NCBI RefSeq assembly: GCF_003334765.1
Contig: NZ_QOWT01000061.1
DNA: 7,246 nt
Strand: one strand, 5' to 3'
Source: Escherichia coli
Lineage (GTDB): Bacteria; Pseudomonadota; Gammaproteobacteria; Enterobacterales; Enterobacteriaceae
A program made the translations under genes and the position numbers. Numbering within the stretch: position 1 is the stretch's first letter; each line of letters opens with the position of its first letter. Shown here piece after piece: positions 5,410 to 6,252 of the stretch. The notes under the pieces were generated by a model. That model saw only the letters and a list, made by a program, of their open reading frames with translations, did not search any database and was not told the origin of the DNA.

Positions 5410-6252
5410 CTATTGTGTTGTATACGAAGGCGATAGCATTTCCTGTTTCATTTGCCATTCAGGGGCGGTTCCTCGCCCCGCAAACCACACTTTCCCTTTT
5501 CCCGACTGGTTCAGTTCATCGAGTGTTTTCATTAACTTTTCACTGTTTTTACGGGGCTGGATTTCATCAAATAATCCCGGCTGCGCTATACCCGATGGTG
5601 TGAAATCAGCCAGCATGACTCCTGCCTTCATATAGCGGTACCCTTCACGCCAGACATGGTTTAAGGCTCTGCATGCGGCGGCAATAATGTCCCGGCTGTC
5701 CTGTGTGGGCAATGAAAGCTTTTCCACAGCGGCATTGCTGTAACAGGGTTCTTTTACTGCAAAGGGGGATGTCCGTACAAATGTCGTCACCTGCCGGCAA
5801 TACTGACGCTCCCCACGTAGTTTCTCTGCGGCCCGCTCAGCATACTGAACAACAGCCTGGTGCATGGCATCTTTGTCTGTGATTCGTTCACCAAAACTGC
5901 GACTACAGACAATCTGCTGTTTTGCCGGTGGTGCTTCTTCCAGGGATATGCAGGACTCGCCGTTGAGTTCGCGTACCGTACGCTCAAGAATGACGCTGAA
6001 GTTTTTCCGGATGAATGCCGTGTTAGCCTGCGCCAGCTGCAGTGCTGTGTTAATACCCAGCGCATTCAGCTTTTCCGTCAGTCTGCGTCCTACTCCCCAG
6101 ACCTCACCAACTGGCTGCAGCCCCAGTAGCTTCAAGATCCGATTACGGTTTTCTGCCGTCAGCGCGACCACACCGGAAAACTGTGGCCATTGCTTTGTTG
6201 CCCACTGTGCACTTTTAGCCAGCGTTTTTGTAGGCGCAATGAATATCAGCAG
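5410..6252 (-). pseudogene. umuC: 5'-truncated umuC/impB-family Y-family (Pol V) polymerase gene; about 150 N-terminal codons missing
   Basis: The ORF aligns with E. coli UmuC from about residue 145 to the C-terminus (IAPTKTLAK..., VWGVGRRL, ERTVREL, CSRSFGERIT, WQMKQEMLSPSYTT). Extending the frame upstream, similarity stops at about 6240-6250 and a stop codon lies at 6253-6255. No umuD-like gene is upstream. Confidence 0.8.

Follow-up and report, generated by a model that had tools for sequence, protein, structure and literature searches.

An impB remnant marks the loss of an impCAB operon from an enteroaggregative-type IncF plasmid of Escherichia coli

The window, a 7,246-nt stretch of Escherichia coli DNA, carries, beside the intact plasmid partition genes stbA/parM and stbB, the 3' part of impB, a plasmid gene of the umuC family of Y-family polymerases. 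This truncated gene is very probably (at a rough probability of 0.93) the non-functional remnant of an impCAB operon, left by one deletion on an IncF plasmid of the enteroaggregative type (agg3 fimbriae). The deletion removed 1,981 bp, both of its ends are placed exactly, and it is inherited in several isolates. In the impCAB operons of TP110, of IncI/IncF plasmids and of the Shigella virulence plasmid, ImpC is DinI-like, ImpA is UmuD-like and ImpB is UmuC-like, and the operon is regulated by LexA. Apart from its lineage-specific junction the locus holds nothing new: it is an ordinary, recently formed deletion pseudogene. Its features, in window coordinates, are these:

4010–4981, plus strand: stbA/parM, intact partition gene (annotation of colinear plasmids; Pfam StbA_N)
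4986–5378, plus strand: stbB, intact partition gene (annotation of colinear plasmids; Pfam Plasmid_stab_B)
5410–6241, minus strand: impB/umuC-family Y-family polymerase remnant, comprising codons 139–414, the stop codon and the last base of codon 138
5413–6171, minus strand: 253-aa ORF with a GTG start, a gene-caller product within the remnant (ORF list)
6240–6241, no strand: deletion junction, a 2-bp microhomology (TG) of both ancestral breakpoints (blastn and base-by-base comparison)
6239–6532, plus strand: 3' remnant of a DUF1281-family gene, codons 205–300 and stop (tblastn, DUF1281 residues 204–300, 99% identity)
6577–7246, minus strand: degenerate IS3-family element fragment (NCBIfam transpos_IS3; comparison with the pFORC43/55989-type copy)

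Translated from 6300 to 5410, the minus strand shows an in-frame stop at 6253–6255, just beyond the breakpoint, which closes the frame upstream, then four junk codons, and then unbroken UmuC-like sequence as far as the natural impB stop at 5410–5412. With the intact 414-aa ImpB of plasmid pLAO63 as the query, tblastn returned a single match in the window, in which positions 6240–5413 (minus strand) equal ImpB residues 139–414 at 100% identity. The remnant shows zero differences from the intact impB of pLAO63, and the intact gene of p140_MLI109 is likewise 100% identical to it; genes deposited as impB, Y-family polymerase or umuC match its DNA at 98.5–100%. An earlier note on this DNA had described a umuC-family fragment that reaches its natural C-terminus and breaks off sharply. 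That description stands, with its limits redrawn: similarity begins at residue 139, not at about 145, and the break, put at about 6240–6250, falls exactly after 6241, so the feature is 5410–6241 and not 5410–6252. Bases 6242–6252 are already part of the DUF1281 remnant, which lies on the opposite strand. Alignment to the full-length homolog, as the note had proposed, uncovered no full-length in-frame umuC, only residues 139–414 being matched downstream of the stop at 6253–6255.

The top NCBIfam match of the remnant is the UmuC model NF002955 (512.5 bits, E 9e-154), a score above the model's cut-off of 431 bits that places the remnant in the UmuC family over profile positions 139–414 only. In full-length ImpB, Pfam maps the IMS domain to residues 6–149, the HhH motif to 176–201, the little finger (IMS_C) to 245–359 and DUF4113 to 372–414. 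The remnant keeps the HhH, little-finger and DUF4113 regions together with a beta-clamp-type motif, QPGLF, which aligns with the clamp motif QLNLF of K-12 UmuC; the clamp-binding role of motifs of this type is an established part of UmuC biology. The 253-aa ORF inside the remnant carries recorded IMS_HHH, IMS_C and DUF4113 domains, and exactly this protein is found on 96 contigs under the name “hypothetical protein.”

The closest complete relatives of the window, pLAO63 (NZ_OP242283.1) and p140_MLI109 (NZ_CP117007.1), both possess an intact impC-impA-impB operon. Read from stbB, they contain impB/umuC (414 aa), impA/umuD (145 aa) and the dinI-like impC; beyond an intergenic region follows a DUF1281 gene of 300 aa in divergent orientation. 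The window matches both plasmids at 99.9% identity on each flank. Window positions 105–6241 align by blastn with 1501–7637 of the extracted pLAO63 segment (99.89% identity), and 6240–7246 with 9617–10623 (99.90% identity); both flanks are thereby colinear with pLAO63, with 8 mismatches in about 7.1 kb and none of them within the impB remnant. What is missing at the junction relative to pLAO63 is a block of 1,981 bp: impB codons 1–138, the entire impA and impC genes and the LexA-box promoter, together with codons 1–204 of the DUF1281 gene and the promoter in front of them. This block is common elsewhere: no fewer than 1,907 PLSDB plasmids cover ≥80% of it.

Base-by-base comparison with both ancestral breakpoints revealed no inserted bases, IS terminus or recombinase site at the junction. 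Direct or inverted repeats in register with the breakpoints are absent as well, the nearest, of 15 nt at 87%, lying some 120 bp away. The locus therefore has what defines a deletion-derived pseudogene, namely colinear flanks, a gap without an insert, and truncation of both neighbouring genes. Because the gap is clean, no foreign DNA is present and the flanks are colinear at 99.9% identity, the event was a simple deletion and not a replacement, which decides between the two that the earlier note had left side by side. The comparison with related plasmids carrying the intact operon, also suggested there, places one 1,981-bp deletion, and the supposedly unrelated sequence past the break turns out to be codons 205–300 of the truncated neighbour.

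The ancestor would have been essentially identical to pLAO63 or p140_MLI109, and one event of illegitimate recombination would have joined two points, 1,981 bp apart, with only TG in common. The end product suggests microhomology-mediated slippage or end joining as the mechanism, and the outcome is two promoterless, headless gene tails lying back to back. Since the impB remnant has not diverged at all from pLAO63, the deletion is recent, and its sequence permits no inference on selection.

The deletion took the catalytic centre of the polymerase. ImpB residues 1–138, into which most of the IMS domain (residues 6–149) falls, have no match in the window, nor do UmuD-like ImpA and DinI-like ImpC (tblastn, best E 0.3–3). 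The active site of Y-family polymerases is formed by the carboxylates D6, D101 and E102; in intact ImpB all three are conserved in the alignment to K-12 UmuC, and in the window they are missing with residues 1–138, leaving no catalytic IMS domain (PF00817). Since all three catalytic carboxylates and most of the IMS domain are deleted, the fragment, judged by its sequence, cannot be an active polymerase. There is no complete ORF with the native start, homology ending at 6241 and the frame being closed at 6253–6255. An impCAB-type operon would have impA and impC adjacent; the window contains neither, and it offers no UmuD'-type partner for the 253-aa ORF. On these points the earlier note was right: the N-terminal catalytic region and a umuD/mucA-like partner are both gone, and an active Pol V is not to be expected.

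The loss of the LexA-controlled promoter goes beyond what that first reading had recognised. One LexA box, CTGTATACATATACAG, lies at 8756–8771 of the extracted pLAO63 segment, inside the deleted part, and a second, GACTGTGTGTGGATTCAGTT, likewise belongs to the deleted promoter region; the window has 0 matches to CTGT-N8-ACAG. The same two boxes are found in the impCAB promoter of pTF2, where both have been shown to respond to LexA (PMC12211044). The promoter scan detected no minus-strand promoter-like site in 5300–6700, promoter and terminator scans gave counts not above those of shuffled sequence, and the Rfam scan of the window produced no matches. No Shine-Dalgarno sequence or other recognisable ribosome-binding site precedes the GTG with which the 253-aa ORF begins. 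Both remnants are thus predicted to be silent.

The DUF1281 tail is essentially the ferredoxin-like DUF1281_C domain (Pfam PF18406; residues 201–274 of the full protein). At 6239 an ATG has arisen at the junction from the ancestral GTG, which encoded Val204 of DUF1281, and for this reason gene callers emit a junction-specific 97-aa protein; an AGG stands 4 nt 5' of the new ATG. In GenBank records the 97-aa product (6239–6532) is named “aerotaxis sensor receptor, flavoprotein,” which looks like a misannotation of the DUF1281 C-terminal domain. Both ORFs of the locus are best annotated as pseudogene fragments, and neither as “hypothetical protein” nor as “aerotaxis sensor receptor.” A 222-aa chimeric ORF on the plus strand (5864–6532) first reads antisense through 125 impB-remnant codons and then, with the frame kept at the junction, through the C-terminal codons of DUF1281; its exact sequence is recorded as a protein nowhere in the protein collection searched.

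The surroundings identify the replicon. The window is an IncF maintenance region that comprises, in order, vapBC, ccdAB, a tyrosine recombinase, a ParA-like ATPase, stbA/parM, stbB, the impB remnant, a short plus-strand ORF and the IS3 fragment (ORF map and annotation of near-identical plasmids). Genes for agg3-type chaperone-usher fimbriae follow in pLAO63 and in longer contigs of the same sequence, so the window belongs to an IncF plasmid of the enteroaggregative, pAA-like type. The IS3 fragment bounds the locus and lies outside the deletion; its transposase is frameshifted near 7025–7041, with the ORF at 7025–7243 covering profile positions 167–234 and that at 6604–7041 covering 236–369. 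Relative to the pFORC43/55989-type copy, the fragment is without the first 26 bp of the terminal inverted repeat, and the contig ends inside the element.

Could the junction be a short-read misjoin, the true plasmid carrying an intact impCAB? The window is a draft contig of 7,246 bp, and its positions 6100–6400 are spanned by no closed plasmid in PLSDB (72,556 records) and by no complete E. coli genome (5,426), which is what raised this suspicion. An artefact is nonetheless exceedingly improbable. The exact 97-aa junction protein (4 GenBank accessions) occurs on contigs from GCA_012531175.1, GCA_965137835.1 and GCA_003334765.1 and from the Logan assembly of ERR271232, the window's own contig, QOWT01000061.1, being among the four. 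At the junction all four have the same 60-mer, their identity to the window is 100% over lengths of up to 7,008 bp, and each junction-bearing contig is recorded from 2 to 6 samples. The three GenBank assemblies and the Logan assembly were produced separately, and a k-mer assembler is not misled by a 2-bp overlap of unique sequences. The same junction in four independent assemblies means that the allele is genuine and is inherited within one plasmid lineage. A mobile element as the agent of truncation, by an IS adjacent deletion or by an integron-like site-specific insertion as in Pseudomonas rulB, has some points in its favour: the IS3-family fragment is 340 bp from the junction, in pFORC43 and 55989 pAA the IS3-family terminal repeat TGAACCGCCCCGGG (segment L003, 4900–4960) interrupts impB at window 6207, 34 bp from the junction, and the umuC-family gene rulB has been recognised as a hotspot of elements that carry integrases (PMC4542609). 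Yet both sides of the junction run straight into ancestral sequence without an IS end or an inserted base; where the gene is cut in the pFORC43/55989 class an IS3-family inverted repeat is present, whereas neither a mobile-element terminus nor a recombinase gene is found at this breakpoint. DUF1281 codons 205–300, colinear with pLAO63, separate the junction from the IS fragment, and pLAO63 has the same IS fragment but an intact operon. Integron-like integration was rejected: the junction has gained no DNA, it has no integrase beside it, and it falls at another place in the gene, the rulB insertion lying much nearer the 5' end, at a GAT target, and leaving a 345-aa ORF (PMC4542609). A mobile-element origin is accordingly given very little weight.

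It is similarly hard to credit that the remnants still serve a purpose, be it an ImpB C-terminal fragment that modulates host translesion synthesis or a stand-alone 97-aa DUF1281_C protein. The 253-aa and 97-aa ORFs are both open and the remnant is unmutated relative to the intact gene, but this lack of divergence reflects a recent deletion, not selection. In the alignment to UmuC, QPGLF falls opposite the clamp motif QLNLF, and the 253-aa ORF, present on 96 contigs, also survives in a second, independent truncation class; across PLSDB, however, impB breakpoints are scattered and the commonest remnant keeps only nt 750–1218, a pattern of neutral decay. Translation of the 97-aa ORF could be aided by the AGG 4 nt before the junction ATG, and read-through from stbAB (plus strand) or from the IS fragment (minus strand) is conceivable; against expression of the impB fragment stand the deletion of the promoter and LexA boxes, the lack of a minus-strand promoter-like site in 5300–6700, and a GTG start without a Shine-Dalgarno sequence. 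That the deletion itself might have made a new expressed product, either the 97-aa DUF1281_C protein by stbAB read-through or a dead ImpB C-terminal fragment with the clamp motif, is highly doubtful; if true, the ImpB fragment could interfere with host translesion synthesis. The preferred reading remains that of a non-functional remnant formed by one simple deletion.

As in intact-operon plasmids, the remnant is convergent with stbAB and occupies the same position as complete impCAB operons do, and its ancestral promoter had the LexA boxes of pTF2. Unlike those operons, it consists of impB codons 139–414 only. With impC, impA, the promoter and the active site gone, the locus can serve neither UV survival nor induced mutagenesis, and the plasmid would no longer supply Pol V-like UV protection or mutagenesis. 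Intact ImpB resembles K-12 UmuC (b1184, the catalytic subunit of DNA polymerase V), to which it is 58% identical over its full length and with which it shares D6/D101/E102 and the clamp motif; the window gene differs from the chromosomal umuC in being a plasmid paralogue and in being truncated. The nearest parallels are the remnants of 55989 pAA, pFORC43 and NZ_AP022299.1 and the nt 750–1218 type, all of them impB 3' fragments that abut stbB. In the 55989 class the fragment ends at an IS3-family terminus (6207) and in NZ_AP022299.1 at a rearrangement (6208), whereas the window has a clean deletion at 6241; its allele is also absent from the closed plasmids searched, unlike other impB remnants. 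Pseudomonas rulB (Rhodes et al., 2014; PMC4542609) likewise is a plasmid umuC-family gene that has been interrupted, with truncated ORFs left behind. There, XerC/D-like recombinases integrate site-specifically at a GAT target close to the 5' end, bringing in cargo, whereas the window locus has neither an insert nor an adjacent recombinase.

Truncation of impB is frequent among plasmids. At least 80% of the gene is present in one piece in 2,282 of the 3,597 PLSDB records that match it, and about a third of these 3,597 contain only part of the gene. The fragments end at gene nt 74, 94, 310, 750, 893 and 1170, and 5' pieces of nt 1–670 and 1–1023 also occur; the nt 750–1218 remnant, which is the commonest, is especially widespread on IncF plasmids and is usually unannotated. 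The impCAB operon aids UV survival, and its over-expression causes a severe growth defect (PMC10286972); a UV benefit combined with strongly deleterious over-expression fits frequent loss that is neutral or mildly favoured. The loss seen here, too, may have been neutral or, because over-expression is toxic, mildly favoured. The enteroaggregative-type IncF lineage has thereby lost a plasmid SOS mutagenesis operon, one more case of a decay of impCAB that has happened often and independently among E. coli plasmids, and the junction of GTAGGCGCAATG with AATATCAGCAG provides a handy lineage marker for this plasmid variant.

Two independent impB lesions, at 6207 and 6208 (region 6205–6211), lie 33–34 bp from the window junction. 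The second is that of NZ_AP022299.1 and several metagenome contigs, in which impB is split by a rearrangement and the 5' half is inverted, about 7.7 kb away (segment L012, 2387 and 10110; L009, 5964), with impA, impC and DUF1281 likewise displaced and inverted. A breakpoint hotspot at 6207/6208/6241 is not claimed: truncations in PLSDB are spread all along the gene, and the closeness of the three lesions is for this reason treated as coincidence.

The 31-bp convergent gap between stbB and impB includes a perfect 16-nt AT-rich palindrome, TTCTGATATATCAGAA, at 5373–5388, which overlaps the stbB stop. Too AT-rich for the terminator scan to detect, it may act as a terminator for both directions or as a binding site. 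At the left end of the contig, window 10–104 is a 92.6% inverted copy of 10803–10895 of the pLAO63 segment, 180–270 bp past the right end of the window; related repeats at both contig ends probably explain the assembly breaks.
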